Source of the DNA: Chloroflexi bacterium UBA4730
GTDB lineage: Bacteria; Chloroflexota; Limnocylindria; P2-11E
NCBI GenBank assembly: GCA_002404155.1
Contig: DHJC01000073.1
Location: forward strand, 38,937-102,936
DNA: 64,000 nucleotides
Direction: 5' to 3'
Every line of letters begins with the position of its first letter. Within the stretch, counting starts at the first letter, position 1. This document shows positions 1 to 59,542 of this stretch, one piece after another. The notes beneath the pieces are model-generated. The model worked only from the letters and a program-made list of their open reading frames with translations. It was not told the origin of the DNA and did no database searches. A program made the position numbers and the translations under genes.

Positions 1-1008
1 GTTCTCGAGCGGCTGACCGAGGGCGCCCTCCGGGTACACCCGGTCGAAGATCTCGCCGATGATGTGGAAGTTCGAGTCGACGAAGCCACCGACGCCGAAG
101 TAGATCCGGACCCTCTCGCCGACCTTCGCCGTGAGCGCGCCCGTGCCGGTCAGTGCACCGACCCGGCCGTTGAACAGAACGTAGTCCGGCGACTCGGCGA
201 GCAGCTTGTCGTTGGACAGGTCGTGGTGGCCCGGGATGCCGAACGCGGTCGTGGTGTAGAGCTCGCTCTGCATCACGTAGTACTCGTGATCGACCTTCGG
301 CAGGCCGCCGACCGGCTCGACCAGGATCATCCCGAACATCCCGTTGATGATGTGCGTCGGGATCGGCGCGGTGGCGCAGTGGTAGACGTAGAGCCCGGGG
401 TTGAGCGCCTTGAACGTGAACTTCGCCTCTTGTCCCGGCGAGACGATCGTGGCCCCCGACCCGCCGCCTGGACCGTTGACCGCGTGCAGGTCGATCGAGT
501 GCTGCATCACGTCGCCCGGCGCGTTCTTCAGGTGGAGCTCGACCGTATCGCCCACCCGCACCCGCAGCATCGGCCCCGGCACCGTGCCGTCGAAGGTCCA
601 GTAGCTGTAGGTCTGGCCCTCGTCGAGCTTCGCGATCAATTCCCTGGTTTCAAGAGTGACCACGACGGTCGTCGGCGTCGTCCGCGTGATCGGCGGTGGA
701 ACATCCGACGCCGCGCGCGAGATCTCATTCACGGTGACGGGCTTGGCACTCGCCGCCGGCGCCGCACCTGCCGCCGGCGTGGTGCTGGTCGATACGGGGT
801 CCATCCCGGGCATGGTGGCCGGCATCGCGGTCGCGACGGGACCCGAGACGGTGGCCGCGACCTTGGGCTGACTCGCGGCCGTCAGCACGAGCACCGTCGA
901 GGTGAAGAGCACAGCGACGGTGATGATCGTCAGGAGCAGATAGCGGTAGCCCTCGCCCATTGGATCGAAGACCGGTCGCGACACAGGCTGCACACGGTGT
1001 CCACTCAT
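1..1008 (-). CDS. nirK: Copper-containing nitrite reductase, N-terminally membrane-anchored; 3' end runs off the left edge
   Basis: Not in the ORF track; translated by hand from ATG at 1008. MSGHRVQ..., TM helix (YLLLTIITVAVLFTSTVLVLTAA), P/A/T linker, then WTFDGTVPGPMLRVRVGD, HSIDLHAV (type 1/type 2 Cu His, catalytic Asp), GLYVYHC, THIINGMFG, SNFHIIGEIFDRVY, which are NirK/AniA signatures. Confidence 0.93.
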   Translation of the reverse strand, partial: MSGHRVQPVSRPVFDPMGEGYRYLLLTIITVAVLFTSTVLVLTAASQPKVAATVSGPVATAMPATMPGMDPVSTSTTPAAGAAPAASAKPVTVNEISRAASDVPPPITRTTPTTVVVTLETRELIAKLDEGQTYSYWTFDGTVPGPMLRVRVGDTVELHLKNAPGDVMQHSIDLHAVNGPGGGSGATIVSPGQEAKFTFKALNPGLYVYHCATAPIPTHIINGMFGMILVEPVGGLPKVDHEYYVMQSELYTTTAFGIPGHHDLSNDKLLAESPDYVLFNGRVGALTGTGALTAKVGERVRIYFGVGGFVDSNFHIIGEIFDRVYPEGALGQPLEN

Positions 1009-1065
1009 GCGCTGACGGTATCGGTCATCAGCTAGGCAAGCGCCTGCCGAGGGTCATCGTCTGGC

Positions 1066-1081
1066 AGGGCCGGAGGTCCCG
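1066..1081. promoter_or_regulatory. DosR/OsdR-like operator box (AGGGCCGGAGGTCCCG) upstream of nirK
   Basis: Quasi-palindrome in the short intergenic gap, ~60 nt before the nirK start; same motif recurs at least 15 times in intergenic DNA. Confidence 0.65.
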
Positions 1082-1090
1082 ACCGCGGGG

Positions 1091-2392
1091 CTAGCGGCGG
1101 CGGCCGAAGCGGATCTCGAGCGGCACCGGCGCGCCCGCCGCGACCACCTCGGCGCTCGGACCCCGCAGCGTGCGGACCACGTTCAACGCGAAGAGCACGA
1201 GCGCACCGTAGGCGAGGAGCCCGGAGATGCCGACGATCGCGTCGCTCGGCGCACCCGTGGCTTGAACCAGCTGCGGCCCGACGCGCAGCGCGATCGCCAG
1301 ATTCGCGACCGCGAGCGTCGCCGCTTGCACTCGAAGGCTCCAAAGGCGGCGGCCGAGGAAGGCAGGCAGCGCACGCGACGCCACCGAGTAGATCATCAGC
1401 GTGACGAACCCAAGCGCCAGCGCGTGCCGGGCCGCCGAGACCTGGAGGTACGAGCCCGCGAGTCCCACCGTGCCCGCCGCGATGATCGCGAGTCCGATGA
1501 ACGCCCACAGGAACGCGGAACGCACGCCGATGCGGGTCAGGCGGGCGTGATCATGCAAGGGCTGACGGGCGATGCCCGATCCAAATACGCCCATCGCGCG
1601 GGTCAGCGCCGCAAGACCGACCAGCAGCAGCCATGGCCCCGGGGCCACGCCGAGCGAGAGAGTGAGGACACCCGCGAGCCAAAACGACGCGCCGGTGATG
1701 AGCAGCGGAGGCTTCGCTGGCACAGCGGCCACAAAGCCGGGGGCGAGGCGAGTCCACACGCCGAAGATGAGCGTGCTGAGGCTCCCGAGCAGCATCACCC
1801 ACACCGCCCGGTCATCGATGCCCTGGTCGACGAGCACGGGTGCAGATCCCGCCATCTCGAGGGCGACGAGCAGCGCGGCGATGGGCAGCACGCAGATCCC
1901 CGCGCCGATGAGAAGCTCGTCGGGCCGGTGGGGATTGCGGCCGGTCGCGAGCGATCGGAGTGCCGCGTAGCTGAAGGCGAGCGTTCCCACGCACAACAAC
2001 GCGCCGCTCAGAACAAGCAGCGAACCACGCGCGGGGAGGTCGGGCATCGGTTGGGCGATGGAGCGCAGGGCGAGGCCGCCCAGGGTCCCGAGGTACGTGA
2101 TCCACACGAGCGCCATCCGCGGAGGCGCCGCACCGCGGAATCGTGGCAGCGCGTTCAGCGCGACGCCCATCGCGAAGAGGCCGGCGAAGCCGAACAGCTG
2201 CAGCAGCCCATGGACCTGAACGAGTACGAGCCAGTTCGCGCCGAACATGCTGACGCCCCACACGCGGGCCAACAGCAACCAGAGACCGAGGCCGAAGCCC
2301 GCGCTCAGGCCGATCGCCAGCGAGGTCGCCGCGAAGAGGGCGACCGGCGGCGGACGAGTACTAGTCGACGTGTCGGTCGGCCAGGCCCGCAT
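1091..2392 (-). CDS. nnrS: NnrS-family multi-pass membrane protein (NO-stress associated)
   Basis: 433 aa, ~12 hydrophobic helices, HGLLQLFGFAGLFAMGVA...LPRF and RHALALGFVTLMIYSVASRALPAF repeats typical of NnrS; adjacent to nirK. Confidence 0.72.
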   Translation of the reverse strand: MRAWPTDTSTSTRPPPVALFAATSLAIGLSAGFGLGLWLLLARVWGVSMFGANWLVLVQVHGLLQLFGFAGLFAMGVALNALPRFRGAAPPRMALVWITYLGTLGGLALRSIAQPMPDLPARGSLLVLSGALLCVGTLAFSYAALRSLATGRNPHRPDELLIGAGICVLPIAALLVALEMAGSAPVLVDQGIDDRAVWVMLLGSLSTLIFGVWTRLAPGFVAAVPAKPPLLITGASFWLAGVLTLSLGVAPGPWLLLVGLAALTRAMGVFGSGIARQPLHDHARLTRIGVRSAFLWAFIGLAIIAAGTVGLAGSYLQVSAARHALALGFVTLMIYSVASRALPAFLGRRLWSLRVQAATLAVANLAIALRVGPQLVQATGAPSDAIVGISGLLAYGALVLFALNVVRTLRGPSAEVVAAGAPVPLEIRFGRRR

Positions 2393-2573
2393 CCTGACCG
2401 ACGGGGACCGGACTTACGGCAGCGCAGCGCAGCGCCGGCGTGCCGGCGGAGCGATCCAGATCGAGCAACCAGTTGCATTCTAGGCAGCGCGCGAGATCGA
2501 CCTCCTCGCCCCGCCGAGCGCAGTGCACCCGCCCGCTGGCAAGGACGGGACGCCAGCCACGCTCGCTATTCAT
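2361..2573 (-). CDS. Small Cys-rich hypothetical protein (70 aa), putative metal-binding
   Basis: MNSERGWRPVLASGRVHCARRGEEVDLARCLECNWLLDLDRSAGTPALRC...; ATG overlaps the end of the upstream PCYCGC gene (ATGAATAG), and the ORF overlaps the NnrS start. Confidence 0.55.
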   Translation of the reverse strand: MNSERGWRPVLASGRVHCARRGEEVDLARCLECNWLLDLDRSAGTPALRCAAVSPVPVGQDAGLADRHVD

Positions 2574-3024
2574 CGGGGTATGGGGTCGACGCGGACGGTC
2601 CCATCTCCATCCACTTCGCATCGATCGCGGCCCGAATTTCCTTCAGGCTCATGCCGCTCGCGAGCATGGCCTTCGTGTCGAGCGCGACACCCACGCAGGT
2701 GCCGCAGGCGAAGCCGTGCGGATCGAGGATGAACGTGTCTGGCGCCGTCTCTTCTTTCACGAAGCAGTCCCAGTTGTCACGATGCCCGGGGCCGCAGCCG
2801 CAGAAGCACGGGATGTGGCGCAGCTGCGCCTTGTGATCGACCGCGAACGCGTAGGCCTCGCGGACCGCTTGCGGCGCCTGCGCATAGCGACCGGGCCACA
2901 TGCCGTGCAGCGGCATCGCCAGCAGTGCGTTCGCGGTCGGTGCCGGTGCTGTTGCGACGGCGGGGGCCGCGCACGCGGCGAGCGCGGCACCGGCGAGCGC
3001 GACGAGGAACTCCCGGCGACGCAC
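2566..3024 (-). CDS. PCYCGC-motif lipoprotein
   Basis: GTG start at 3024; RRREFLVALAGAALAAC signal/lipobox; AYAFA, HIPCFCGCG..H..NWDC and HGFACGTC motifs characteristic of the family. Confidence 0.85.
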   Translation of the reverse strand: MRRREFLVALAGAALAACAAPAVATAPAPTANALLAMPLHGMWPGRYAQAPQAVREAYAFAVDHKAQLRHIPCFCGCGPGHRDNWDCFVKEETAPDTFILDPHGFACGTCVGVALDTKAMLASGMSLKEIRAAIDAKWMEMGPSASTPYPDE

Positions 3025-3025
3025 G

Positions 3026-3372
3026 TCAGGCCGACACGGCGGTGTACGGAGCGGTCGCCGGGAAGCCCTTCCCGTTGATCGTGAACCCACCGAGGGCGTC
3101 GCTGAGGATGAACAGCTCGTCCGTGTCGTCGGACGGGTCCACATTCCTCTCTCTTGGTACGACGATCAGCGGTCCAAGCATTCCCAGGCCGACCTGCTCC
3201 GTCGCGTTGTGGTGTGCGTCGTACTGCCGAACGGGCCGGCCGTGAACTCGTACGCGTACGTCAAGCCCGGCTTGATCGGCGGTTGGGTGATAGACGGGAC
3301 GCCGTCCATCGAGTTCGGGACCCGCTGGCCGTGCCGGTGGAACGCGGTGCTCTCAGACGGCGTGTAAGTCAC
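3026..3372 (-). pseudogene. Truncated, frameshifted multicopper-oxidase (cupredoxin domain) relic
   Basis: TAFHRHGQRVPNSMDGVPSITQPPIKPG..YEFTAGPFGS, then a frameshift near 3222 to YDAHHNATEQVGLGMLGPLIV...FTINGKGFPATAPYTAVSA*. HWH has become HRH; no signal peptide; C-terminal Cu-binding part absent. Confidence 0.8.
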
Positions 3373-3417
3373 CTGCCGTCCATGGGCCCAAGCTACGGGC
3401 GGAGTGCGGCCCCACCT

Positions 3418-3456
3418 ACGGCCGCAGGTCCCGACTCGCGTAGGCCGAACGGCCCG
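3418..3456. promoter_or_regulatory. Two DosR/OsdR-like boxes (3418-3433 ACGGCCGCAGGTCCCG; 3441-3456 TAGGCCGAACGGCCCG)
   Basis: Match to the recurrent intergenic motif, upstream of the multicopper-oxidase relic/PCYCGC/NnrS genes. Confidence 0.5.
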
Positions 3457-3468
3457 ACCCCCGCGTTC

Positions 3469-4965
3469 CTACTGCACCAGGAACGCGAAGCGGAAGATCG
3501 GCAGCCGATTTCCCGGATGGTCGTCGAGGGCCGTCAGCTGCGGCATCTTGTAGTTCGCGGGCCGCGTCTCACTTCCCTGGTAGATGCCGGGGTACATGTC
3601 GATGAAGTGCCAACCCGGCTCGCCGGCGACGGTGAGCAGGATCTCGATGTCGCCGGCGCTCTGGAACGCGCAGGAGTAGCCGGCGAAGGCGTTGTCGTAC
3701 ACGAGGTGGTAGATCTGCTCGGTCTCGGTCCACCCGACGCCCTTGAGGTGCACCGACACCTTCGTCCCCGCGGGACCGCGGTCGACCGAGAGCGGGAACG
3801 CGTTCGCGAGGATGTAGAGGTTCGTCTTGGCGACGACGGTGTCGCCGATCTTCGCGGAGAGCACGTGGTCGCCGCCGAGGTCGTCGGGGACCTTGAACGC
3901 CCAGGTGAATGCGCCGTTGCCGTCGGTGCGCGTCGTGCCGAGCGCCTTGGTGCGCTCCTCGAAGCCGGTGACGGACCGGTTGCCGACCATTGTGGTCCAC
4001 CCGATCTCGATGTCGCTGTTCGCGGGGAGGGCCTTCGCGTTCAGCGTCGCGGGCGTGCCGACGATGGCGCCGCCTGGCGAGGTCCAGATGCCCTTGTCGA
4101 CCGGCTTCGCGCCGATGATCGCGAAGCCCTGCTGCTCGACGGGCTCGGGGAGGACGGCCGGGCCGTCGGTGATGGTGAACGGCAGGTGCGGGAACGGCCG
4201 CGATGCGACGACGGGCTGCTGCTGCGGGTTGAGGTACGGAGCGCCGAACTCGCTGTGCCCGAGGGTGATGTAGTGCGCGCCGGGCCTGCCGGTCGCCGGG
4301 ATGACGAACTTCGCGTAGCCGTCGGTCGTGATCGAGGAGACCCAACCGGTGTAGGCGTTGTCCCAGGAGAGCTGAAAGCTGTTCTGGTACGACTGCCAGC
4401 CGATGCCCTTCACCTCGACGGTGATCGGCGTGCCGAGCGGGCCGCTCGTCGGGCTGATGGTGGTGACCATGTCGACGTCGAAGAGGCTCTTGTTCCTGAT
4501 GATGCTCTGCGCGTCGACGACCATGACGTCGTGCGCGTAGCCGAAGCCGCGCGGCACGCTGAACGTCGCCTGGAAGCCGCCGTTCGCGTCGGTGGTCGGG
4601 CTCTGCAGCACGTTCTGGATGAGCGACGCACTGCGGCCCAGAAACTTGCTGCGATCGTCCGAAAGCTTCCATTGGACCTTGCCAGTGGTCCAGACGAGGT
4701 CGTACTTCGTCGACGGCTTCATGCCGGTCACCGTCGCCGTGACCTTCGTGTCCCACGGACCGCGTGCTGGTTCGAGGGCGAACTTGCCGACGACCTCCAT
4801 CGGCTGGACCGATGCGGTCGGGGCGGTGGATGCGACGGCCGCCGCCGCGCTCGCGGCGGGCTTGGCCGTCGCAGCACTCTCCAGACTCCGCGTGGGCGGA
4901 GCCTGGGTCGTGCTGCAGGCCGCGAGGAAGAGCGCCGCCGCGATCGCGACGGCGACACGCCTCAT
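3469..4965 (-). CDS. Lipoprotein of unknown function with repeated Ig/IPT-like beta-sandwich modules (498 aa)
   Basis: Lipobox LFLAAC; repeated module starts EPARGPWDTKVTATVTG / SPTSGPLGTPITVEVKGIGW / SVDRGPAGTKVSVHLKGVGW; repeated YDN(A)Y/F.G and TTDANGGF/TRTDGNGAF. Confidence 0.8.
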   Translation of the reverse strand: MRRVAVAIAAALFLAACSTTQAPPTRSLESAATAKPAASAAAAVASTAPTASVQPMEVVGKFALEPARGPWDTKVTATVTGMKPSTKYDLVWTTGKVQWKLSDDRSKFLGRSASLIQNVLQSPTTDANGGFQATFSVPRGFGYAHDVMVVDAQSIIRNKSLFDVDMVTTISPTSGPLGTPITVEVKGIGWQSYQNSFQLSWDNAYTGWVSSITTDGYAKFVIPATGRPGAHYITLGHSEFGAPYLNPQQQPVVASRPFPHLPFTITDGPAVLPEPVEQQGFAIIGAKPVDKGIWTSPGGAIVGTPATLNAKALPANSDIEIGWTTMVGNRSVTGFEERTKALGTTRTDGNGAFTWAFKVPDDLGGDHVLSAKIGDTVVAKTNLYILANAFPLSVDRGPAGTKVSVHLKGVGWTETEQIYHLVYDNAFAGYSCAFQSAGDIEILLTVAGEPGWHFIDMYPGIYQGSETRPANYKMPQLTALDDHPGNRLPIFRFAFLVQ

Positions 4966-4970
4966 GTCAT

Positions 4971-5525
4971 TTACCTCTTTCCGAGCGGCACGACGGTGAG
5001 AAGGGCCGCGGCGACCTTGAACTGATCCCAGGTGCCAACGGCACCATCGAGCGTCGTTACCTTGATCTGGTAGGTGAATGCGCCCGTTGGGTAGTCCTTT
5101 GGCAGGCTGAAGCCAGAGGTCCAGAAGAAGTCCGTGGGCACTGCGTTCGCACCGCCCGGGTGACCGCCGTACTTGAAGGCCTGGGTCTTTCCGTCCGGGA
5201 GCGTCAGGTCAAACGACTTGATGGCCTTGTCGTCCAGGGCCTTGCCCGAGAGCGGATCGAGCGCCTTGAAGCGCCACACGATGCGCGAGCCCTGCGGGAA
5301 CCGGCTCTGCTGGACGCAGGAGAGGAACGTCTTCTCCTCGTCGGTGAGCGCTTCGGGACTGCGGACCGTGTCGCCCTGCAGGATGAGGAACGATGCGACC
5401 TGCGGCTTCGCCGTGGTGGCCGCGGTCGCGGCGGTCGATTCGCCGGTGCCGCCTCCACACGAGGCAAGCGTGCCGACGACGAACGCGAAGGACGCGGTGG
5501 TCGCGAGGATGCGGCGCAAGATCAT
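4971..5525 (-). CDS. Lipoprotein of unknown function (184 aa)
   Basis: Signal peptide with lipobox LASC, A/T linker, beta-rich domain (SCVQQSRF...VWRFKALDP...YGGHP...FWT...DYPTG); start overlaps the upstream stop. Confidence 0.75.
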   Translation of the reverse strand: MILRRILATTASFAFVVGTLASCGGGTGESTAATAATTAKPQVASFLILQGDTVRSPEALTDEEKTFLSCVQQSRFPQGSRIVWRFKALDPLSGKALDDKAIKSFDLTLPDGKTQAFKYGGHPGGANAVPTDFFWTSGFSLPKDYPTGAFTYQIKVTTLDGAVGTWDQFKVAAALLTVVPLGKR

Positions 5526-6181
5526 GCGGTGTCTCCCTTTCGGCGTGATTCATTCGCGCGGGCGACCACGCCACGCGCGGTACCGAACAACGAAAGCGCG
5601 ATGAGGCCCCAGACCGCGAGCACCACGACCCCGGCCGCGTACGGGACGTACGCACTGAAGGTCGCGAGCGCGGGCCGGTCGACGGTGTACGCGGGCGCGG
5701 CGACGGTGGCCTCGAGCGTCGTGACGCCGAGTGACGGTGTGAGCGTGCCCTGTCCCGCGAAGCGCGCGACGATCTGGTGCGCGCCCGTCATGGCGGGGAG
5801 GTACGAGATCGCGGTGAGACCCTGTCCGTCGGTCACCGCGCTGCCGATGAGCTCCTCCCGCTGGCCGAACAGGTCGACGATGTCGTAGAAGCGGATCGTC
5901 GCGTCGTTCACCGGCATTCCGGCGGGGCTGATGACCGTCACGCTCAGCGTGTATCCGAGCTCCAGCTTCGCGGCGGGCGCCGTCGAGAGTGTCACCCGCG
6001 ATCCGTCGGCCGGCGGGACGATCGGCTGTGGGGCGGCGACCGTCGGCGCGCCGCTGTGCGCATGCGCGTCGTCGCTCGCCGCCGGAGCGCCCGCCACGAG
6101 CGGGAGCCGACCGCTGGCGAAGGCGATCACCGCGAGCGTCGCGACGAGGGCCGAGCCCAATAGCAGAGCTTTCCTGATCAC
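5522..6181 (-). CDS. Membrane-anchored Ig-like domain protein (signal/TM + Ig-like + C-terminal TM); homologous to the C-terminal fusion domain of the NrfD at 61740-63707
   Basis: GTG at 6181 overlaps the NrfD stop (GTGA); G.PV.DATIRF...IGSAVTDGQG.......TGAHQIVARFAG, then TM GVVVLAVWGLIALSLFG. Confidence 0.75.
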   Translation of the reverse strand: MIRKALLLGSALVATLAVIAFASGRLPLVAGAPAASDDAHAHSGAPTVAAPQPIVPPADGSRVTLSTAPAAKLELGYTLSVTVISPAGMPVNDATIRFYDIVDLFGQREELIGSAVTDGQGLTAISYLPAMTGAHQIVARFAGQGTLTPSLGVTTLEATVAAPAYTVDRPALATFSAYVPYAAGVVVLAVWGLIALSLFGTARGVVARANESRRKGDTA

Positions 6182-7512
6182 TTCCCACCGCCCTCGGCGA
6201 ACGTCGGCACGAGCACGATGGCGCGCGGCTCGGGCGTGCCTTCCACCTCTTCCATCTCGTGGACCGACATCACCGGGAAGAAGCGGAAGAAGATGATGAG
6301 GATGAGCGGGATCGCGGCGGCGGAGCCGATCGTGATCGTGACCTCGACCCACGTGGGCGAGTACCGGCCCCAGTCCCACGGCATGATCGGCTCGGCCATG
6401 CCGGGCACCACGATGAGGAACCGCTTCAGCCACATCCCGGCGATGACGAGCGTCGAGGCGCCGACCGCGCGCGCGATCGTGAACCGACCGGGAAACGCGG
6501 CGAGTGCGAGCGGGACGATGAGGCCGAGGATGGTGAAGGACCAGAAGGCCGGCGCGTAGCTGCCGACGAAGATCGCCTCGAGTACCGGCGTGACGCTCTC
6601 CTCGGCGAGGTATCCCTCCGTGAGGTACTCGCTGACCATGAAGTACAGGTAGCCGACGCCCAGGGCGATCATCAGATAGGAGAGGTACCGAAAGTGCCTC
6701 GCGGTGATGAACTCCTGGAGGCCGTAGACCTTGCGGAACGCGGCCACGACGAGGATGACCGCCGCGACGCCCGAGAGCATCGCGGCCAGGACGAACAGCG
6801 GAGCGAAGATCGTGCTGTGCCACCCGCCGCGCGCCGTCACCGCGAAGAGCCACGCGAGGACCGAGTGGACCGAGACCGCGAGCGGGATGATCAGCACGGC
6901 CATGATCCCGATGCCCCGGTGGAGCGAGGCCCGTTGGCCCGGCGTGCCCTTCCACCCGAGCGCGAGGACGCCGTAGATGCGCTGCAGCCTGCTCATGCGG
7001 AGCGAGTCGCGCGTGGTCGCGAGATCCGGGATGAGCGGCAGGTAGAGGAAGACGAGGCTCGCGATCATGTACGTGCTGATCGCGACGACGTCCCACACGA
7101 CCGGTGATCCGACCTGGCCGTACCGGAGGATGTACAGGAAGCGGTCCGGACGGCCCATGTCGATGATCGGGTACACCGCGCCGACGAGGAGCGCCGCGAC
7201 CGCCGTCGTTTCCGCCAGTCGCGTGAGCGGTGCGCGCCACTTCGCGTTCGTGAGACGGAGGATCGCGCTCGTCATCGCGCCGCCGTAGCTCATGCCGATG
7301 AAGAAGACGCAGTTGATGATGTAAAAGCCCCAGGAGACCTGCTGGTTAAGGCCGGTGACCCAGAGGCCGCGCTGGATCTGGTAGATCCAGGCGTAGATGC
7401 CGGCTGCGACGAGCGCGGACAGGACGGAGACCGCGATCCAGAAGTTGCGATCGCCGCGGCCGATGGGCCACGTCGCGCGCTCGATGTAACGGTCGTGCGT
7501 CCGGCGGTCCAT
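6178..7512 (-). CDS. NrfD/PsrC/DsrP-family quinone-interacting membrane subunit
   Basis: 444 aa, ~10 TM; GLWVTGLNQQVSWGFYI, DMGRPDRF, SPVVWD, SVHSVLAWLF, GWHSTIFAPLFV, MWLKRFLIVVPG, YSPTWVE. Confidence 0.9.
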   Translation of the reverse strand: MDRRTHDRYIERATWPIGRGDRNFWIAVSVLSALVAAGIYAWIYQIQRGLWVTGLNQQVSWGFYIINCVFFIGMSYGGAMTSAILRLTNAKWRAPLTRLAETTAVAALLVGAVYPIIDMGRPDRFLYILRYGQVGSPVVWDVVAISTYMIASLVFLYLPLIPDLATTRDSLRMSRLQRIYGVLALGWKGTPGQRASLHRGIGIMAVLIIPLAVSVHSVLAWLFAVTARGGWHSTIFAPLFVLAAMLSGVAAVILVVAAFRKVYGLQEFITARHFRYLSYLMIALGVGYLYFMVSEYLTEGYLAEESVTPVLEAIFVGSYAPAFWSFTILGLIVPLALAAFPGRFTIARAVGASTLVIAGMWLKRFLIVVPGMAEPIMPWDWGRYSPTWVEVTITIGSAAAIPLILIIFFRFFPVMSVHEMEEVEGTPEPRAIVLVPTFAEGGGK

Positions 7513-8292
7513 CTAGAAGTCCAAGAGCTGACCGTGGCCGGCGATGTAGTAGACGCGCGGGCCGGTGCCGAGCTCTTCCTTGTAGCGGAACGCGTCATTC
7601 TCCTTAAGGAACGTCGAGAGGCGTACGGTCCGGTCACCGTTCGTGGCGACGTCCTCGACGAGGTCGCCGATGTAGATCGCCTTCATGGGGCAGCCCTCAA
7701 CGCACGCGGGGAGCTGCCCCTCCGCGGTGCGGTGGACGCAGAACATGCATTTGCCGACGGTGCCCTTCTGCTGCGGCACCGGGAACTCCGGGGTCGCGTG
7801 TCCGAAGGGGTTGTCGTACTTCGGCGGGTCGACGTAGTTGAAGTAGCGGGCGCCGTACGGGCACGCCGCCATGCACATGCGGCAGCCGATGCAGCGGTCC
7901 TGATCGACGAGGACGACGCCGTCGGCTACACGGTAGGTCGCGGCGACCGGGCACACGCGGAGGCACGGGGCGTTCTCGCACTGGAAGCAAGGACGCGGCA
8001 TGAAGTACTCGCCGCCGTGCTTGTCCTTGACCTGGAAGACCTTGATCCACTCGAAGTTCTGCGGGAGGTGGTGCGTCTCCTGGCAGGCCTCCGTGCACTT
8101 CTTGCAGCCGTCGCAATTCCGAAGGTCGATGACCATCGCCCACTGACGCGGCTTGGCGTCGGGTGCGTGTTCCGACTCGGCCGCCGCCTCGAACGTGATC
8201 GGGGACATCCCGGCCGCGACGGCCACAGCGGCGCTGGCGCCCAGACCGCCGAGACCAACCAGGAGCTGCCTGCGGGAGACCGGGCCCGCCAT
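7513..8292 (-). CDS. Tat-exported 4x[4Fe-4S] ferredoxin subunit (NrfC/DsrO/DmsB-like)
   Basis: ATG at 8292 after a GAGGAGAGG RBS; SRRQLL twin-arginine signal; MVIDLRNCDGCKKCTEAC, CFQCENAPCLRVCP, CIGCRMCMAACPY, CMFC...ACVEGCP. Confidence 0.92.
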   Translation of the reverse strand: MAGPVSRRQLLVGLGGLGASAAVAVAAGMSPITFEAAAESEHAPDAKPRQWAMVIDLRNCDGCKKCTEACQETHHLPQNFEWIKVFQVKDKHGGEYFMPRPCFQCENAPCLRVCPVAATYRVADGVVLVDQDRCIGCRMCMAACPYGARYFNYVDPPKYDNPFGHATPEFPVPQQKGTVGKCMFCVHRTAEGQLPACVEGCPMKAIYIGDLVEDVATNGDRTVRLSTFLKENDAFRYKEELGTGPRVYYIAGHGQLLDF

Positions 8293-8368
8293 TTGTCCTC
8301 TCCTCATGCCGCGGTCTGACCAGTCAGCCGGGTTGGCTCCAAGATGGCGGGGGCGCCGGGCGCGAATA

Positions 8369-8384
8369 AGGGCCGTTCGGCCCA
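8369..8384. promoter_or_regulatory. DosR/OsdR-like box (AGGGCCGTTCGGCCCA) upstream of the NrfC/NrfD-nirK operon
   Basis: Near-perfect palindrome; 14/16 identical to the OsdR consensus AGGGCCGATCGGCCCT as I recall it; a degenerate copy sits at 8476-8491. Confidence 0.75.
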
Positions 8385-8550
8385 TACGACCGGGTCTAGG
8401 GGGCCCCTTTTCCCGGGCCCAAGCTCGGCCACGAAAAACGCGGCTCCGGGGTTGCGATCGATGCCGCGCCAGGCATGGGCCGGATGACCTCGCAAGACCG
8501 GTCCGATGGCCCTTGTCATCTCGATCGCACGCCAACAACATCGCGACCGC

Positions 8551-8793
8551 ATGAGGAGCTACGTGCTCGAGTTCGTGGTTACGCATCCAGTTGCGACCGC
8601 CAGCGCGCTTCGTCAACAGCTGCGCAAGAGCCTTCCGTGGGCGCACGAGCTGCTCGTGGTCGGCGACGAGGACGTACTCAAGGTGCATGTGCGAACGGGG
8701 CGTCCCGATCTCGCACTCGGGATCGGCCTGGAGTGCGGCGTGGTCGACGACATCGTGCTCAAGGCCGAGGCGAGTTCGGTGCTCGTCGCCTAA
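8551..8793 (+). CDS. Stand-alone small protein resembling the middle domain of DAK2/FakA fatty-acid kinases
   Basis: LLVVGDEDVLKVHVRTGRPDLALGIGLECGVVDDI resembles the VVGD..VKVHVHT..P motif of FakA/YloV; start could be 8506 or 8551. Confidence 0.55.
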   Translation: MRSYVLEFVVTHPVATASALRQQLRKSLPWAHELLVVGDEDVLKVHVRTGRPDLALGIGLECGVVDDIVLKAEASSVLVA

Positions 8794-8851
8794 GCCTCGC
8801 GACGCCGGCGTTCTTCCCTATCGGGGCCCGTTCAGCCGACCTATGGCGGCG

Positions 8852-9496
8852 CTAGAGGCGCGGCTTGTGCTTCGCCATGTACGCCGCGGCCTCGGCGCGG
8901 CGTGAGAGGCCGAGCTTGTCGAGGATCCGGCTGACGTAGTTCTTCACCGTCTTCTCCGACAGGAAGAGTGCGTCGCCGATCTCGCGGTTCGTCTTTCCTT
9001 CGGCCAGGCCCGAAAGCACCTTGCGCTCCTGCTCGGTGAGCGAAGCGAGTGCAGGATCTTCAGCCCGGCTCTCTCGCAGTCGCTCCAGCACCTTGCCCGT
9101 GACATCGGGATCGAGCAACGAGCGACCGGCGGCGACGGCGGTGATCGCGTCGACGACGGCCTGACCGCGGGTCTGCTTCAACAGATACCCGGAGGCGCCG
9201 GCGATGATCGAGGCGAACAGCGCCTCGTCGTCGGCGTACGAAGTGAGCATGATCACCTTCGTCTCGGGTCGCGCCTCGCGGATCGCGCGGCATGCCTCGA
9301 CTCCGGAGCCATCGGGAAGGCGCACGTCCATGATCACCACATCCGGCTTGGCGCGTGCCGCGGCCTCGATCGATTCGGCCACGCTGCCGGCCTCCCCGAC
9401 CACGCTCATCCCCGCCTGGCGGCTGATTAAGCCGCGAAGTCCCTCCCGTACCACCTCGTGGTCATCGCAGATCAGCACCCGTGTCGTCGTCGTCAT
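8852..9496 (-). CDS. NarL/LuxR-family response regulator, DosR/DevR-like
   Basis: RVLICDDHEVVREGL, DVVIMDVRLPDGSGVEACR, LTSYADDEALFASIIAGASGYLLK, LTEQERKVL..LAEGKTNREIG..LFLSEKTVKNYVSRILDKLG, closely matching DevR. Confidence 0.92.
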   Translation of the reverse strand: MTTTTRVLICDDHEVVREGLRGLISRQAGMSVVGEAGSVAESIEAAARAKPDVVIMDVRLPDGSGVEACRAIREARPETKVIMLTSYADDEALFASIIAGASGYLLKQTRGQAVVDAITAVAAGRSLLDPDVTGKVLERLRESRAEDPALASLTEQERKVLSGLAEGKTNREIGDALFLSEKTVKNYVSRILDKLGLSRRAEAAAYMAKHKPRL

Positions 9497-10863
9497 GCCG
9501 CGGCTCCCTTCGATATAGGCATCCGCATCACCAGGCGGGTCCCGGCGCCCGGGCGCGACTCAAGCTCCAAGCGTGCACCCGCATTGAACGCGCGCTGGCG
9601 GATGTTCCGCAGACCAAGGCCCCCGACCGCACGCTCGGTCTGGAATCCGACGCCGTCGTCCTGGATCTCGAGCACGACCGCACCGTCCTCGTGGCGCAGA
9701 GCGAGCACGACGTGCCGTGCCCGCGCGTGACGCGAGACGTTGCCGAGGGCATCGGCAGCAACGTAGAACACGGCCTCGCGTGCGGCGCGATCCAAGCGCG
9801 CCTCTGCCTCCGGATCGATGCGCACGTCCACGTCCAGCAGCGCGTTGGTCGCGATGTGCTGCGCCAGGGTCGGGAGCGACTCGCGTAGCGGGCGGTCAGA
9901 TCCTCCGATCGGGCGGAGGCCGAGCACGTAGCCGCGCAGATCGGCGATGGCGGCATTGAGTCGGTCGACCGCACGTTCGAGCTGCGCGCGGGCCTCACTG
10001 GGTGCGCGTTCGACCTCTTCGGAAGCGCCCTCGATGAGCAGGCCCAGAGCGTAGAGCGACTGGATCGCGCCGTCGTGCAGATCCATCCCGATGCGATGCC
10101 GCTCCTCGAGCACGGACATCTTGCTGGTCTGGGCGTAGAGACGCGCGTTCTCGATCGCGATCGCGGCTTGCGCGGCCAACGCGAGCAACGCCTCCTCGTC
10201 CTCGACCGTGAACTCGTTGCCGCCCAGTTTCTCGGTCAGGTAGAGATTGCCCACCGACTCACCCCGCCAGCGGATCGGCACACCCAGGAAGCTCTTCATC
10301 GGTGGATGGTTGGGCGGAAAGCCGACGGAGGCCGGATGCGCGCGGAGGTCACGTAGCCGGATCGGGCGACCCTCGCGGGGCAGGAGCCCGAGGATACCTT
10401 TGCCCACTGGCGGCGGGCCGATCCGTTCGTGTGCTTCGTCGCTGATCCCTGACGTGTAGAAGTGCGTGATGCGCCCCTGCTCATCGAACGTGCCCAGCGC
10501 CGCGTACTTGGCATCGCCGACGATGCGCGCAAGCTCGGCGATCTTGTGCAGCAGGGTCTCGGTCTCGAGCTCGGCACTGAGCGCGAGTCCAGCTTCGTTC
10601 AGCGCCCGGAGCCGACGCGACTGCGCGATCTCGCGCAGGTGCAGATCACCCAAGCGTGCCAGGATCGCGATCGCGAAGGTGACGACGCCAGCGGCACCGA
10701 TCGCCAGAAGTGCGGCGTGGCCCGCTGCCGAGGGCAGTGACGGCTCCAGTACCCAATAGTCGAGCCCGACGAGCGCAGCGAGCAGCAGCACGGGAAGCAC
10801 GAGCGCCGCAGCGATGAGGCGAGCGGGATAGACACGCCGACCGGCCAGGACGCCGAGGTTCAC
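9493..10863 (-). CDS. GAF-domain sensor histidine kinase, DosS/DosT-like
   Basis: Two N-terminal TM; GAF with HPASVGFPPNHPPMKSFLGVPI (DosS-type heme His position); HisKA_3 ERHRIGMDLHDGAIQSL; HATPase DDGVGF...GLGLRNI; coupled to the regulator (ATGA overlap). Confidence 0.9.
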   Translation of the reverse strand: MNLGVLAGRRVYPARLIAAALVLPVLLLAALVGLDYWVLEPSLPSAAGHAALLAIGAAGVVTFAIAILARLGDLHLREIAQSRRLRALNEAGLALSAELETETLLHKIAELARIVGDAKYAALGTFDEQGRITHFYTSGISDEAHERIGPPPVGKGILGLLPREGRPIRLRDLRAHPASVGFPPNHPPMKSFLGVPIRWRGESVGNLYLTEKLGGNEFTVEDEEALLALAAQAAIAIENARLYAQTSKMSVLEERHRIGMDLHDGAIQSLYALGLLIEGASEEVERAPSEARAQLERAVDRLNAAIADLRGYVLGLRPIGGSDRPLRESLPTLAQHIATNALLDVDVRIDPEAEARLDRAAREAVFYVAADALGNVSRHARARHVVLALRHEDGAVVLEIQDDGVGFQTERAVGGLGLRNIRQRAFNAGARLELESRPGAGTRLVMRMPISKGAAA

Positions 10864-10871
10864 ACCCTCGA

Positions 10872-11243
10872 TTATCGGACTAGCCCGTGGACCCCGGGCC
10901 CGACGCAGGCGTCCGCGCCTGCGGACGCGACGGCCGTGATGACGGGCTCGTGGCGCCCCTGGGCATCAAGCTGGTCCTTGGCGAAGGCGATCGGGAGCGA
11001 GTGGCTCGCGCGGATCAGCATGAGGGTGAGCTCTGGCGTGAGTGTGGATCGGTCATAGATCGCCAGGTCCGCCTCCGTGTGGAGCGGGCAGTGGGCGCCG
11101 TCGAGGAGCACGCAGAGCACCTGGGGCCCGACGCAACGGAGGGTGCGCATACCGAGCGCCTCGAGGTGGCGCGCCCAGTCGGAACGGACCGCGGAATCCG
11201 CACTGACGACCAGTGCTGTTCGCAGACGAGAGGGGCGGATCAC
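10872..11243 (-). CDS. Hypothetical protein, degenerate receiver-like fold with Cys/His cluster
   Basis: ALVVSADSAVRSDWARHLEALGMRTLRCVGPQVLCVLLDGAHCPLHTEADLAIYD; directly upstream of and co-oriented with the sensor kinase. Confidence 0.6.
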   Translation of the reverse strand: MIRPSRLRTALVVSADSAVRSDWARHLEALGMRTLRCVGPQVLCVLLDGAHCPLHTEADLAIYDRSTLTPELTLMLIRASHSLPIAFAKDQLDAQGRHEPVITAVASAGADACVGPGVHGLVR

Positions 11244-11511: not shown

Positions 11512-11579
11512 CGGAAGGGGCTTTCGGCACCATTGCGCTGGGCAGTTGTCCCGACTGGCCAGAACCTTCACCTCGTCGC
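11512..11579 (-). repeat. Copy 1 of duplicated 5'-leader element (candidate cis-regulatory RNA)
   Basis: 58/63 nt identical to 12201-12263; ends ~45 nt upstream of the DoxX-relic start. Confidence 0.85.
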
Positions 11580-11741: not shown

Positions 11742-12152
11742 CTAGTTGACCGTGAAGGTCAGGTGCATGCCGGCCGCGTAGTGGCCGACCTCGTTGCACA
11801 TGATCACGTAATGACCGGCCGGGATGGTGATGGTGAACGTCTTGGACTCGCCGACCTTTACCTCACCGGTCTCACCGACGTTTCCGGTCTCGTCCACCTT
11901 GCCGGGCTCTTCCACGTCCGGGGCGAGCTTGTTCTCGGCCAGGTCGGTCTGGATGACGACGAGCTCGTGCTCCATCGTCCCGCTGTTCTTCACCACGAAC
12001 GTGATCGGACCGGCCGGAAGGCTCGTCTTGTCCAGCGCGATCTTCATCTCGGTGAGCGTCGCGTTGACCGTACCGCCCTTCGCGGGGGCGGCGCAGCCCA
12101 TGACGAGGGCCGCAGCGATCGCGAGCATCGCCATGAACTTCAGCTTGCGCAT
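11742..12152 (-). CDS. Type 1 blue copper (cupredoxin) lipoprotein
   Basis: ATG at 12152 after AAGGAG; lipobox LVMGC; MEHELVV and HYVIMCNEVGHYAAGM (His, Cys-x4-His-x4-Met Cu ligands). Confidence 0.9.
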   Translation of the reverse strand: MRKLKFMAMLAIAAALVMGCAAPAKGGTVNATLTEMKIALDKTSLPAGPITFVVKNSGTMEHELVVIQTDLAENKLAPDVEEPGKVDETGNVGETGEVKVGESKTFTITIPAGHYVIMCNEVGHYAAGMHLTFTVN

Positions 12153-12200: not shown

Positions 12201-12268
12201 CGGAAGGGGCTTTCGGCACCATTGGGCTGGGCAGTTGTCCCGGCTCGCCGGGACCTTCACCTCTTCCG
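12201..12268 (-). repeat. Copy 2 of duplicated 5'-leader element (candidate cis-regulatory RNA)
   Basis: Sense strand CGGAAGAGGUGAAG-GUCCCGG(CGAG)CCGGGAC-AACUGCCCAGCCCAAUGGUGCCGAAAGCCCCUUCCG; ends can pair (CGGAAG/CUUCCG); ~50 nt upstream of the cupredoxin ATG. Confidence 0.85.
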
Positions 12269-57466: not shown

Positions 57467-57580
57467 TTCATTGGTGCCGAACGGCCTTCCTGCAAGTGCC
57501 GAACGGCACCAATCGGCCCATTCGATGGAGCAGGTCTCGGCCCACCCGGTCGCGTGTGGTGGCCCTCCGCGGCGAGAACG

Positions 57581-59542
57581 ATGCTCGTGACCGTGGCGTA
57601 TACGTTCCAGGTCGAGCGGTCGGGCTGCCTGAACTGTGGCGTCTGCATGGACGTCTGTCCGGTGCACGCCCTGGACATGACGCGGCGCACGGGGACATCG
57701 ATCGAGTCAGGAGCGGTCCGGCACCGGGCGTCGGCGGACGCCGGGGGTCAGGACTGGATGATGGAATTCCCGATCCAGACCGGGGTCTGCGTCGGCTGCC
57801 AGCTCTGCGCGACCGAGTGCCCCACGAGCGTGATCACGATCACCGCGGCTGTGGGGCGGACCGCGCTCGCACCTCCGCAGGGCCCGATCACGGCCGCGCC
57901 CGAGACGACCGGATGGGCGCCGCTCTCCGCCTACACGCACGATGCGCTGCGCGAGCCGCGGGGCGATCCGTGGGGTGCGCTCGCCGAGTGGCGTCCGGTG
58001 AACCGCCCTGACGCCTGGCAGACGTGGCGCGGCTGGGGCGATCCGGCGACGGCGCGATTCCTCGCGCCGTGCCAGGAGGCGTGCCCGGTCGGCACCGACG
58101 CGGGCCTCTATGTCGCGCTCGTCGGCGAAGGTCGCTATGCGGAGGCGTTCGCGGTGGCCGCCGAGTACAACCCGTTCCCGTCGATCTGCGGACGCGTGTG
58201 CACGGCTCCGTGCGAGATCGCGTGCCGGCGCGGCGTGCTCGACGAGCCCATCGCCATCCGTGAGCTGAAGCGGTTCGCCGCCGATCACGGGGCGGCCGGG
58301 TATCCCCGTCCGGTCCCCGCCGAGCGGCGCCGGGTCGAGCGGGTGGCGATCGTCGGCGCCGGCCCGACCGGGCTCAGCGCCGCGTACGCGCTGATCCGCT
58401 CCGGGTACGGCGTGACCGTCTTCGACGCGATGCCCGTCGCCGGCGGGATGATGGCGATCGGGATCCCCGAGTACCGCCTGCCCAAGGACGTGCTGCGAGC
58501 GGATGTCGATCGCATCGTCGGCCTCGGCGTGGAGCTGCGACTCAACACCGCGCTCGGGCGCGACATCAGCCTCGAGCAGCTCAAGGCCGAGGGCTACGAC
58601 GCCATCCTCCTCGCGACGGGTGCCTCGAAGAGCCAGCGCCTCGGGATCGCGGGCGAGGATGCCGAAGGGGTCTGGCCCGCGACGCTGTTCCTGAAGAAGG
58701 TGAACCTGGGCGAGCCCGTGGAGCTGACCGGTGAGGCGCTGGTCGTCGGTGGGGGCTCCACCGCGCTGGATGCCGCACGCACCGCCTGGCGAGCGGGGGC
58801 CCGGACCGTTCGCATCCTCTATCGCCGCACGAAAGAGGACATGCCCGCGCAGCACGAGGAGCTTCGCGCCGCCGACCACGAAGGCGTGGTCATCGAGCCG
58901 CTCGTGGCTCCGATCGAGGTGCTTCGCAAGAACGGTTGGATGACCGGCGTGCGCTGCGTGCGCCTCGCGATCACCGGTCGCGACGCCGATGGGCGGAGCG
59001 CGGTGGCGCCGATCCCCGGCAGCGAGTTCGTGATCGAGGCGTCCGCGCTCATGGTCGCGGTCGGCGAAGCCCCCGATCCGTCGATCCTGCCGGAAGGATC
59101 GAACATCCAGGTCGCCGAATGGGGCGGTGTCGTCGTCGACGCCGAGTCGCTCGCGACGGCGCAGCGCGGGATCTTCGCCGCGGGCGACGTGGCGACCGGT
59201 CCGCGGAGCGTCATCGAGGGAGCGGCCCAAGGGCAGCGCGCCGCGTGGGCGATCGATCGGTATCTACGGCACCAGGACGACGGCACCGACGTGGCCACAT
59301 ACGTGCCGAGCTGGCGCGTCACGCCGTCAGTTCCCAGCACGAAAACCGTCGCCGTCGACCTCGCGCAACGACCGCGCGCGGAGGCCGCCCTCGCGAGCGT
59401 TCGCGGGACGCCGGCGAGCTACGCGGAGGTCTCGCTCGGTCTCACCGAAGCCACCGCTCGCGCGGAAGCGACGCGCTGCTTCCGCTGCGACGTGATCGCG
59501 CAGTGCCCGGCCGTCCAAGTCCAAGGGAGGAGATCAGCATGA
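57581..59542 (+). CDS. 2x[4Fe-4S] ferredoxin fused to a GltD/NfnB-like FAD/NAD(P)H oxidoreductase
   Basis: CLNCGVCMDVCP and CVGCQLCATECP; APCQEACP, CGRVCTAPCEIAC; GAGPTG; GIPEYRLP; GGGSTALD; LYRR; AAGD; C-terminal EATRCFRC. Confidence 0.9.
   Translation: MLVTVAYTFQVERSGCLNCGVCMDVCPVHALDMTRRTGTSIESGAVRHRASADAGGQDWMMEFPIQTGVCVGCQLCATECPTSVITITAAVGRTALAPPQGPITAAPETTGWAPLSAYTHDALREPRGDPWGALAEWRPVNRPDAWQTWRGWGDPATARFLAPCQEACPVGTDAGLYVALVGEGRYAEAFAVAAEYNPFPSICGRVCTAPCEIACRRGVLDEPIAIRELKRFAADHGAAGYPRPVPAERRRVERVAIVGAGPTGLSAAYALIRSGYGVTVFDAMPVAGGMMAIGIPEYRLPKDVLRADVDRIVGLGVELRLNTALGRDISLEQLKAEGYDAILLATGASKSQRLGIAGEDAEGVWPATLFLKKVNLGEPVELTGEALVVGGGSTALDAARTAWRAGARTVRILYRRTKEDMPAQHEELRAADHEGVVIEPLVAPIEVLRKNGWMTGVRCVRLAITGRDADGRSAVAPIPGSEFVIEASALMVAVGEAPDPSILPEGSNIQVAEWGGVVVDAESLATAQRGIFAAGDVATGPRSVIEGAAQGQRAAWAIDRYLRHQDDGTDVATYVPSWRVTPSVPSTKTVAVDLAQRPRAEAALASVRGTPASYAEVSLGLTEATARAEATRCFRCDVIAQCPAVQVQGRRSA

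Follow-up and report, generated by a model that had tools for sequence, protein, structure and literature searches.

The stretch of DNA analysed here, 64 kb from Chloroflexi bacterium UBA4730, a soil member of the Chloroflexota (C64:38937-102936, C64 being the contig; hereafter the window), carries on the minus strand of its positions 1-10863 a string of genes. In transcription order these encode a GAF-domain kinase, a NarL/DosR-type regulator, an NrfC-like ferredoxin, the membrane protein NrfD, a protein with an immunoglobulin-like (Ig) domain, two lipoproteins that we call lipo184 and lipo498, a relic of a multicopper oxidase (MCO), a PCYCGC-family lipoprotein, NnrS and the nitrite reductase NirK. 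We suggest that the five genes from nrfC to lipo498 encode a haem-free quinol:copper-protein module resembling the core of alternative complex III (ACIII), and that NirK is a lineage-specific, co-regulated client of this module and not its defining partner; we favour this reading tentatively, with a confidence that falls just short of even. How electrons reach NirK and the other copper enzymes at the surface of monoderm soil bacteria is poorly known; if the reading is true, the module would be a new and simple link from the quinone pool to copper proteins, relevant to the formation of NO and N2O by the abundant, uncultured Chloroflexota of soil.

All of the genes named in the original prediction, which saw here a single gene string leading from quinol to NirK, are present on the minus strand in their predicted places, and the gene order is real; the string is nevertheless not one operon. 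Translational coupling joins the five genes from nrfC to lipo498, with spacings of 0, -4, -4 and +5 nucleotides (nt) that include two ATGA/GTGA overlaps. Downstream of lipo498 the gaps are ~440 nt (to the probable start of the PCYCGC gene), 173 nt and 82 nt, and nirK has a regulatory box of its own. A scan for sigma-70 promoters returned 0 promoters, and terminator matches were at chance level.

The predicted lack of cytochrome c in the products of the string is borne out, and it extends to the whole 64-kb window, where no CxxCH motif was found in any open reading frame (ORF) of at least 100 amino acids (aa) in six frames. It is true of the locus but not of the genome (assembly of 3.27 Mb in 92 contigs, 83% complete; G+C of the window 66-71%), which has genes of the Ccm/Ccs type and two for cytochrome b, one COX1 and a few proteins with one or two CxxCH motifs; the idea of an organism without cytochromes c was therefore rejected. 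When the genome was examined for bc1, ACIII and nitric oxide reductase (NOR) genes, as had been proposed, bc-type complexes were present and ACIII was absent, and a NOR-type haem-copper oxidase was not found in the 83%-complete genome, the sole match being the COX1.

An ActC-like membrane subunit with iron-sulfur and Ig-fold partners

The first gene of the operon (7513-8292, minus strand) encodes an NrfC/DsrO/ActB2-like ferredoxin of 259 aa with a twin-arginine translocation (Tat) motif, SRRQLL, and four Cys4 motifs. Among NCBIfam models it reaches 205.9 bits for DsrO (cut-off 200) and 144.5 bits for NrfC itself (TIGR03149, cut-off 377.6), with further matches to TtrB and QrcC; its relatives in the PDB are ArrB, PsrB and the C-terminal ferredoxin domain of ActB, and it has no MopB-like part. 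The second gene (6178-7512, minus strand), the only NrfD-family gene of the operon, encodes an ActC-type membrane subunit of 444 aa (Pfam NrfD, 133 bits). Searched with phmmer against all PDB sequences, it matches ActC chains only (6F0K_C, 6LOD_C, 6BTM_C and 8K9E_C, at 193-216 bits) and does not reach PsrC; the best match, 6F0K_C, covers residues 22-426 of 444 with 215.7 bits and E = 1e-62.

Three charged residues, His139, Asp169 and Asp253, have been proposed to line the quinol pocket of R. marinus ActC (PMC5928083). In our alignment Asp169 is kept (as Asp141), whereas His139 is replaced by Asp118 and Asp253 by Leu222; Trp82, Ile86, Pro136, Ser245 and His247 of ActC are also kept. The quinol pocket thus looks related but not identical to that of ActC, and the catalytic direction cannot be read from the sequence. 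One alternative is electron flow in reverse, with the surface proteins taking electrons from an external or periplasmic donor, NrfCD reducing quinone as Qrc or DsrOP do, and NirK being unrelated to it. The changed quinol-site residues fit such a direction, as do the best NCBIfam matches of the two subunits (DsrO, DsrP, QrcC and QrcD) and a NiFe hydrogenase in the same regulon island (see below). We nonetheless consider it very unlikely: the closest solved relatives are the quinol-oxidising ActC subunits of ACIII, the operon has no donor-oxidising enzyme, and the partners found beside relatives of the module are acceptors or carriers (NirK, MCO, cupredoxin, bc1).

The third gene (5522-6181, minus strand), whose start overlaps the nrfD stop (GTGA) and which is also called in public records, encodes a protein of 219 aa (Ig219) made up of a transmembrane (TM) segment, a Big_3_5-like Ig domain and a C-terminal TM segment, with weak Pfam matches to Big_3_5 and CarboxypepD_reg. 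It is kept after nrfD in Chloroflexota loci. A second, paralogous module on the plus strand clarifies its role: here, NrfC2 (60865-61752; 50% identity to the NrfC of the first module) is followed by NrfD2 (61740-63707; 44% identity), which continues in frame into a TM segment, an Ig domain of the Big_3_5 type and a further TM segment at the C-terminus. With NrfD and Big_3_5 in a single ORF, the fused part is the counterpart of Ig219, and the fusion shows Ig219 to be a partner of NrfD that spans the membrane twice and has its two ends on the cytoplasmic side. In topology it is reminiscent of ActD, to which there is no homology. Two lipoproteins had been predicted as Ig-like, and two there are; the Ig-fold proteins of the operon number three, one of them bitopic in the membrane. 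The next gene after NrfD2, just outside the window (C64:103167-104216, plus strand), encodes a di-cupredoxin lipoprotein with two Cupredoxin_1 domains in which the ligands are kept (His/Cys/His/(Met or Gln)).

The earlier view of NrfCD as a quinone-type pair therefore holds, with an ActC-like membrane subunit, no haem, no MopB protein and partners that all face outward; sequence comparison supports a molybdopterin- and haem-free, probably quinone-reactive module.

Two observations on the surroundings of these NrfD genes are added here. Upstream of the paralogous module lie a gene for a GltD-like iron-sulfur flavoprotein (57554-59542) and two for paralogous membrane proteins of no family (~59530-60815). 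A third NrfD-family gene of the genome belongs to a locus on another contig (C23:5779-10864) with a Tat-signal molybdopterin protein resembling formate dehydrogenase and an NrfC-like gene. This is the only set of MopB and NrfD genes in the genome and fits the FqoABC type, which a review of NrfD-family complexes assigns to Chloroflexi (PMC8076601); its molybdopterin gene is seemingly split into ORFs of 201 aa and 859 aa, perhaps by a selenocysteine codon or a frameshift.

Two lipoproteins without a family

The operon ends with lipo184 (4971-5525, minus strand; 184 aa, lipobox LASC, a single beta-sandwich) and lipo498 (3469-4965, minus strand; 498 aa, lipobox LAAC, four beta-sandwich domains). 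Neither belongs to a known family, and searches of Pfam, NCBIfam and PDB sequences found no relatives of either. Their AlphaFold2 models are of good quality (pLDDT 85 and pTM 0.81 for lipo498, pLDDT 84 for lipo184), and a fold search with them returned no functional fold: lipo498 has only generic macroglobulin or Ig matches with TM-scores of ~0.2, and those of lipo184 are likewise generic. Homologues of lipo498 are widespread, with 670 cluster representatives at E<=1e-3 (clusters at 50% identity). The lipoproteins are nonetheless under strong constraint, column identity averaging 70% over 56 homologues. Residues that are invariant across phyla are His145, His231, His367, Cys432, His453 and Asp456 in lipo498, and Cys70, Arg85, His122 and Trp135 in lipo184. 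An internal duplication within lipo498 relates His145 to His367 and His231 to His453. The possibility that the two are cupredoxins was rejected: there is no Pfam cupredoxin match, the models are of the generic Ig/macroglobulin kind, and the Cys and His residues do not follow the cupredoxin pattern.

Both lipoproteins are exported by the Sec route, so any cofactor would have to be acquired outside the cell. We speculate that lipo184 and lipo498 form a new class of extracytoplasmic metalloprotein, probably binding copper through the lone Cys and the His residues of both chains. It would then serve as an end-station shared by several quinol-oxidising modules, of the ActC/NrfC type in Chloroflexota, of the bc1 type in Acidimicrobiia and perhaps also in the form of a cytochrome b on its own. 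Together with NrfCD and the Ig protein it would amount to a counterpart of complex III without haem, connecting the quinone pool directly with NirK or a two-domain MCO under hypoxia or NO. This extended proposal is rather unlikely as a whole. The module itself offers a starting point for finding the function of a widespread protein pair of no assigned family (~670 clusters at 50% identity).

The same invariant residues, one lone Cys plus His in each lipoprotein, might instead serve copper handling, in which the module would supply surface reductant for loading NirK, MCO and cupredoxins by reduction of Cu(II) to Cu(I), with the lipoproteins and the PCYCGC protein as chaperones. Such a role would fit Sec-exported lipoproteins, which can acquire metal only outside the cell. 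It is also in line with the recurrence of a Cys-rich PCYCGC lipoprotein nearby in three related loci (L009, L015 and L022), with a DsbD-like protein beside a cupredoxin in a fourth (L057), and with a DUF6152 protein (mature N-terminus HHSF) that comes after the pair in loci of Xanthobacteraceae. Metal loading would, however, be a costly use of a quinol module of the ActC type, which is energy-coupled, sister species mature NirK without the module, and the lipoproteins show no similarity to CopC, PCuAC, Sco or CusF; we regard this explanation as improbable.

Distribution of the module and of the lipoprotein pair

A pattern scan of 185,579 species genomes gave 64 related loci in Chloroflexota, Alphaproteobacteria, Burkholderiales, Acidimicrobiia and Gemmatimonadaceae. 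The lipoprotein pair is their invariant core: lipo184 lies directly upstream of lipo498 in 56 of the 57 loci with upstream sequence. In 26 loci, virtually all from Chloroflexota, it stands behind the genes for NrfC, NrfD and the Ig protein. In two loci from uncultured Acidimicrobiia (L050 and L063; 9246-14297) the pair instead overlaps the start of qcrC, followed by the genes for a Rieske protein and QcrB, in the order qcrCAB; the coupled QcrC is a dihaem cytochrome c, and the Rieske protein has the motif CTH...CPCH. The neighbours in Proteobacteria vary (Bug/TctC, GMC oxidoreductase, DUF6152, unrelated enzymes), with no quinol module adjoining.

What follows the pair in its NrfCD-coupled form is variable. 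In two loci (L011 and L030) nirK lies directly downstream of lipo498, at +117 nt; in L009 an intact two-domain MCO follows at +182 nt, together with PCYCGC; and L015, L022 and L024 have MCO and/or PCYCGC near the pair. Cupredoxin lipoproteins come after lipo498 at +5 nt in L053 (which also has a di-cupredoxin), at +73 nt in L062 and, with the DsbD-like protein alongside, at +234 nt in L057. Altogether, a copper gene is nearby in 10 of the 27 NrfCD loci, the window included, and in 0 of the 37 loci without NrfCD (Fisher p = 6e-5, kinship ignored); contig ends truncate many of the loci. Elsewhere the neighbourhood is different, as in a clade flanked by an OmpR-type system, where just a pirin gene and hut genes lie downstream, and nirK follows the module in three species only, namely that of the window, L011 and L030. 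Homologous clusters are thus generally unlinked to nirK, and in part to other copper enzymes (10/27 have a copper gene of any kind nearby), which runs counter to a dedicated electron path to NirK as originally envisaged; the pattern suggests a module that is associated with copper enzymes at large and does not serve NirK alone.

Copper proteins beside the module

In the window, the first downstream copper gene is dead. The relic (~3025-3345, minus strand) corresponds to residues ~176-279 of an intact two-domain MCO, with one frameshift and with both ends gone; one public record calls it as a 68-aa Cu-oxidase_3 protein. Its intact homologue, with Pfam matches to Cu-oxidase_3/_2 and 77% identity, is the gene that follows lipo498 in L009. 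The loss leaves as candidate clients NirK and a cupredoxin lipoprotein (11742-12152, minus strand). The latter is sulfocyanin/plastocyanin-like, with a C-x4-H-x4-M motif and Pfam matches to Cupredoxin_1, SoxE and Copper-bind, and it is a candidate carrier; its position upstream of the kinase is kept in L011, L024, L030 and in a genome of the same genus, G103. An identical 14-mer, TGGGCAGTTGTCCC, occurs at 11539-11552 and 12228-12241, upstream of the cupredoxin gene and of a neighbouring small ORF.

NirK (1-1008, minus strand, extending 186 nt past the left end of the window) is a protein of 398 aa, the last 62 of which lie outside the window. It scores 347.6 bits for TIGR02376 (cut-off 296.3) and has an N-terminal TM anchor followed by an Ala/Pro-rich linker; the ligand motifs of the type-1 and type-2 copper sites, HSIDLH and YHC...H....M, are in the window translation, with the C-terminal His beyond it. 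NnrS (1091-2392, minus strand) has 433 aa, of which 26-412 are covered by PF05940 at 53.2 bits (cut-off 28). The PCYCGC-family lipoprotein (2566-3024, in a long ORF to 3144; minus strand) probably starts at a GTG at 3024, in agreement with the 152 aa of public gene calls, and matches PF13798 at 81.6 bits (cut-off 25) with the motif PCFCGC. The function of this family is unknown (PMC13068155).

The anchor of NirK is shared with a di-cupredoxin encoded on another contig (C45:14311-15207, minus strand; 298 aa), whose two tandem domains are each ~70% identical to the cupredoxin of the window. The N-terminal TM anchors (LLLTIITVAVLFTSTVLVL) are 59% identical over 90 residues, with near-identical helices. 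This may reflect a device for co-localisation in the membrane, or possibly a recent recombination; the di-cupredoxin could in either case be the immediate donor of NirK, whichever complex reduces the di-cupredoxin.

Exchange of the module in a sister species

Relatives were compared in a sample of 151 genomes of the class and in 16 NirK loci of the family. The lipoprotein pair is present in 20 of the 151 genomes and in 3 of the 13 genomes of the genus, and bona fide NirK in 29 of the 151. Within the family, NirK occurs in 13 of 18 lipo498-positive genomes compared with 13 of 33 lipo498-negative ones (p = 0.04), and in all 12 other genomes that have both, NirK and the module are on different contigs.

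In one of the same-genus genomes, G103, the regions to either side of the module's position are collinear with those of the window (91-92% nucleotide identity), with nirK, nnrS, PCYCGC and the MCO relic (another fragment of the same gene) on one side and the genes for the response regulator, histidine kinase and cupredoxin on the other. Between them, the 5.25 kb of window 3224-8473, comprising the entire module, are replaced by 1.33 kb. The replacement encodes a dihaem cytochrome b (L091, 10768-11919, minus strand; 384 aa, Pfam Cytochrome_B 64 bits) with two His-x13-His pairs; its identity to the bc-type cytochromes b encoded in the genome of the window is only ~25%. One slot upstream of the same copper genes is thus taken by two unrelated membrane proteins that react with quinone, and this is, albeit from one genome, the strongest single hint that the slot holds a quinol-side donor for the copper proteins downstream. 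The swap of module and cytochrome b in one slot of sister species is moreover a ready-made comparative experiment.

A putative DosR-like regulon and electron supply to NirK

The two regulatory genes upstream of the module encode a sensor histidine kinase (9493-10863, minus strand) with N-terminal TM segments and GAF_2 (66 bits), HisKA_3 (53 bits) and HATPase matches in Pfam, and a NarL/DosR-type response regulator (8852-9496, minus strand; Pfam Response_reg 94 and GerE 68 bits, with NCBIfam MadR/NarL-like matches below the cut-offs). In relatives, the kinase accompanies either the module or nnrS-nirK, and the two-component system belongs to both alike. A 123-aa ORF directly upstream of the kinase (10872-11243, minus strand; family F40 in our clustering) is kept beside the same kinase in L011, L030 and L057.

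The DosR-like box that had been predicted to head the string is a perfect palindrome, GGGCCGTTCGGCCC, at 8370-8383, 78 nt upstream of nrfC. A second box, GGGACCTCCGGCCC on the minus strand (1067-1080), lies 59 nt upstream of nirK. Matches to GGG[AC]CN4G[GT]CCC number 32 in the genome, and 7 of them fall in the window, which is ~2% of the genome (0.63 expected; binomial p = 2e-6). All seven precede start codons: those of nirK (1067), nrfC (8370), a kinase gene (14223), a universal-stress-protein-like gene (21613), the gene for the small subunit of a NiFe hydrogenase (a double box, 31673 and 31695) and one more gene (48974). This refined pattern is the informative one; GGGACN4GTCCC, the classical DosR core, is not enriched when two mismatches are allowed (69 matches vs 77 expected). 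The boxes are kept in the two related loci with nirK: in L030, nrfC is preceded by boxes at 89 and 113 nt and nirK by one at 73 nt, and L011 has a box 74 nt before nirK. From the separate conserved boxes we conclude that module and nirK are separate transcription units of one DosR-like regulon, that is, probably co-regulated and not co-transcribed, under a predicted DosR-like regulator.

These features suggest that the window is a DosR-type island of hypoxia/NO-regulated genes. The mycobacterial DosS/DosT-DosR system likewise combines a GAF kinase, a NarL-type regulator and a 14-bp palindrome, GGGnCn4GnCCC, before several operons that include universal-stress-protein-like and hydrogenase genes. 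It differs in that the kinase here has membrane segments and a single GAF domain, and in that the predicted core of the box is GGGCCGWWCGGCCC and not GGGACTWWAGTCCC.

In the main alternative explanation, module and copper genes are regulon neighbours only: the lipoprotein pair would itself act on another substrate, as a terminal oxidoreductase of a new kind or as a binding station, and NirK would be fed by a bc-type complex via a cupredoxin within a hypoxia/NO gene island. We regard this as possible, if on the unlikely side. It is consistent with the island itself, with 7 of 32 boxes in the window and some of these before universal-stress-protein and NiFe-hydrogenase genes. The same can be said of the pair, which is invariant across phyla, occurs without NrfCD and without copper genes, and is strongly conserved (70% mean column identity, invariant His and Cys). 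It would also agree with a nirK that has its own box and is found behind kinase, regulator and nnrS without the module in the same genus, and with a conventional supply at hand in the form of two cytochrome b genes, Ccm/Ccs genes and a di-cupredoxin carrying NirK's anchor. On the other hand, copper genes recur directly after lipo498 in independent Chloroflexota lineages, in G103 the slot above these copper genes is taken by a cytochrome b, and the paralogous module is paired with a di-cupredoxin; as for the pair being an enzyme, the searches revealed neither a cofactor motif nor a catalytic fold in it.

Several observations weigh against the quinol:copper-protein module that we favour. Of the three charged residues that R. 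marinus ActC has at its quinol site, just one is kept, and the three Ig-fold proteins show no recognisable redox cofactor motif, just lone conserved Cys and His residues. The pair stands alone in many Proteobacteria, and about two thirds of the loci with NrfCD and the pair have no copper gene nearby. NirK has a promoter box of its own, and in the same genus G001 and G058 have kinase, regulator, nnrS and nirK, and G010 kinase, regulator and nirK, with no module at the locus or elsewhere in the genome; in close relatives, NirK therefore works without the module. Finally, bc-type complexes, cytochrome c maturation genes and cupredoxins, including the NirK-anchored di-cupredoxin, could feed NirK in the conventional way. 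The original idea that the NrfCD pair feeds NirK hence survives in part. Copper proteins are enriched beside NrfCD-coupled pairs, module and nirK share a type of box, and a cytochrome b takes the same slot; but nirK follows the module in three species only, sister species do without the module, and a bc-type supply is available.

A possible route for electrons

Gene content, coupling, family assignments, synteny, boxes and the replacement in the slot are observed, whereas the way in which electrons flow, the part that the lipoproteins play and the transfer to NirK are inferred. There are two genetically separable units, probably under one DosR-like two-component regulon. The first is the five-gene operon, with the ActC-type subunit, the Tat ferredoxin carrying four iron-sulfur clusters on the outer face, the two-helix Ig protein and the pair of Ig-fold lipoproteins; the second is the copper hardware, consisting of the dead two-domain MCO, the PCYCGC lipoprotein, NnrS and the membrane-anchored NirK. 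We envisage that the ActC-type subunit oxidises (mena)quinol, and that the electrons travel along the iron-sulfur wire to the cell surface, where the Ig-fold proteins might act as a docking or relay station, possibly with a metal site formed by Cys and His. The electrons would then be handed over to type-1-copper proteins, be it cupredoxins, a two-domain MCO or NirK, and in this organism NirK, reached directly or via the nearby cupredoxin, would be the surviving client.

Comparison with known systems

The nearest known system to our module is the ActB2/ActC core of ACIII, a complex that in Chloroflexus reduces a cupredoxin, auracyanin. ACIII (ActABCDEF; 6F0K, 6BTM, 6LOD, 8K9E), which passes electrons from quinol to cytochrome c, HiPIP or auracyanin (for auracyanin and cytochrome c, see PMC5928083; PMC8076601), has in common with the module an ActC-type subunit and a ferredoxin like the C-terminal part of ActB, both in an outward-facing arrangement. 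In contrast, the locus lacks the pentahaem ActA, the monohaem ActE, ActF, ActD and the MopB-like ActB1, has three Ig-fold proteins instead, and two of the three charged residues of the quinol pocket are changed. Membership of ACIII was rejected on these grounds: no pentahaem protein is encoded in the genome, whose CxxCH proteins have one or two such motifs only, ActB1 and the second NrfD-like subunit, ActF, are missing as well, the third NrfD of the genome belongs to the locus of formate dehydrogenase/Fqo type, and with four defining components absent the module is not a member of ACIII.

The NrfCD proteins of NrfABCD, and MccCD, follow the same two-subunit quinol dehydrogenase logic for a periplasmic nitrogen- or sulfur-oxide reductase. 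They differ in feeding multihaem proteins (NrfB/NrfA, MccA), whereas here there is no haem protein and the membrane subunit is ActC-like. NrfABCD was rejected as an assignment, given the NrfC score of 144.5 vs 377.6 bits and no haem c proteins in the window. So was DsrMKJOP: DsrO is just above its cut-off, but DsrP reaches 127 vs 350 bits, and the operon neighbours are Ig-fold proteins and not DsrMKJ. A complex iron-sulfur molybdoenzyme of the Psr/Phs/Ttr/Arr type was discarded as well, there being no MopB gene in the locus.

NapH and NosH are iron-sulfur proteins with four TM segments and not NrfD proteins, and NosGH still passes its electrons via cytochromes c. A functional likeness is nonetheless seen with NapGH/NosGH, which, as far as Kern and Simon are cited for it in PMC3475470, are haem-free iron-sulfur quinol dehydrogenases for periplasmic reductases of the denitrification type, including the copper enzyme NosZ. 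With the canonical supply of NirK, from bc1 or ACIII via pseudoazurin, azurin or cytochrome c, the present system shares standard type-1 and type-2 copper ligands and cupredoxins nearby and elsewhere in the genome; it differs in that a haem-free ActC/NrfC module would replace bc1, and in that NirK is membrane-anchored by an anchor common to a di-cupredoxin.

Full-text literature searches found no description of the module, and the review of NrfD-family complexes lists none such (PMC8076601). What is new here is the variable copper slot, filled by NirK, MCO or cupredoxin, the clustering of DosR-like boxes in a regulon island, the exchange of the module for a cytochrome b at one and the same locus, and the evidence for NirK as a facultative client.

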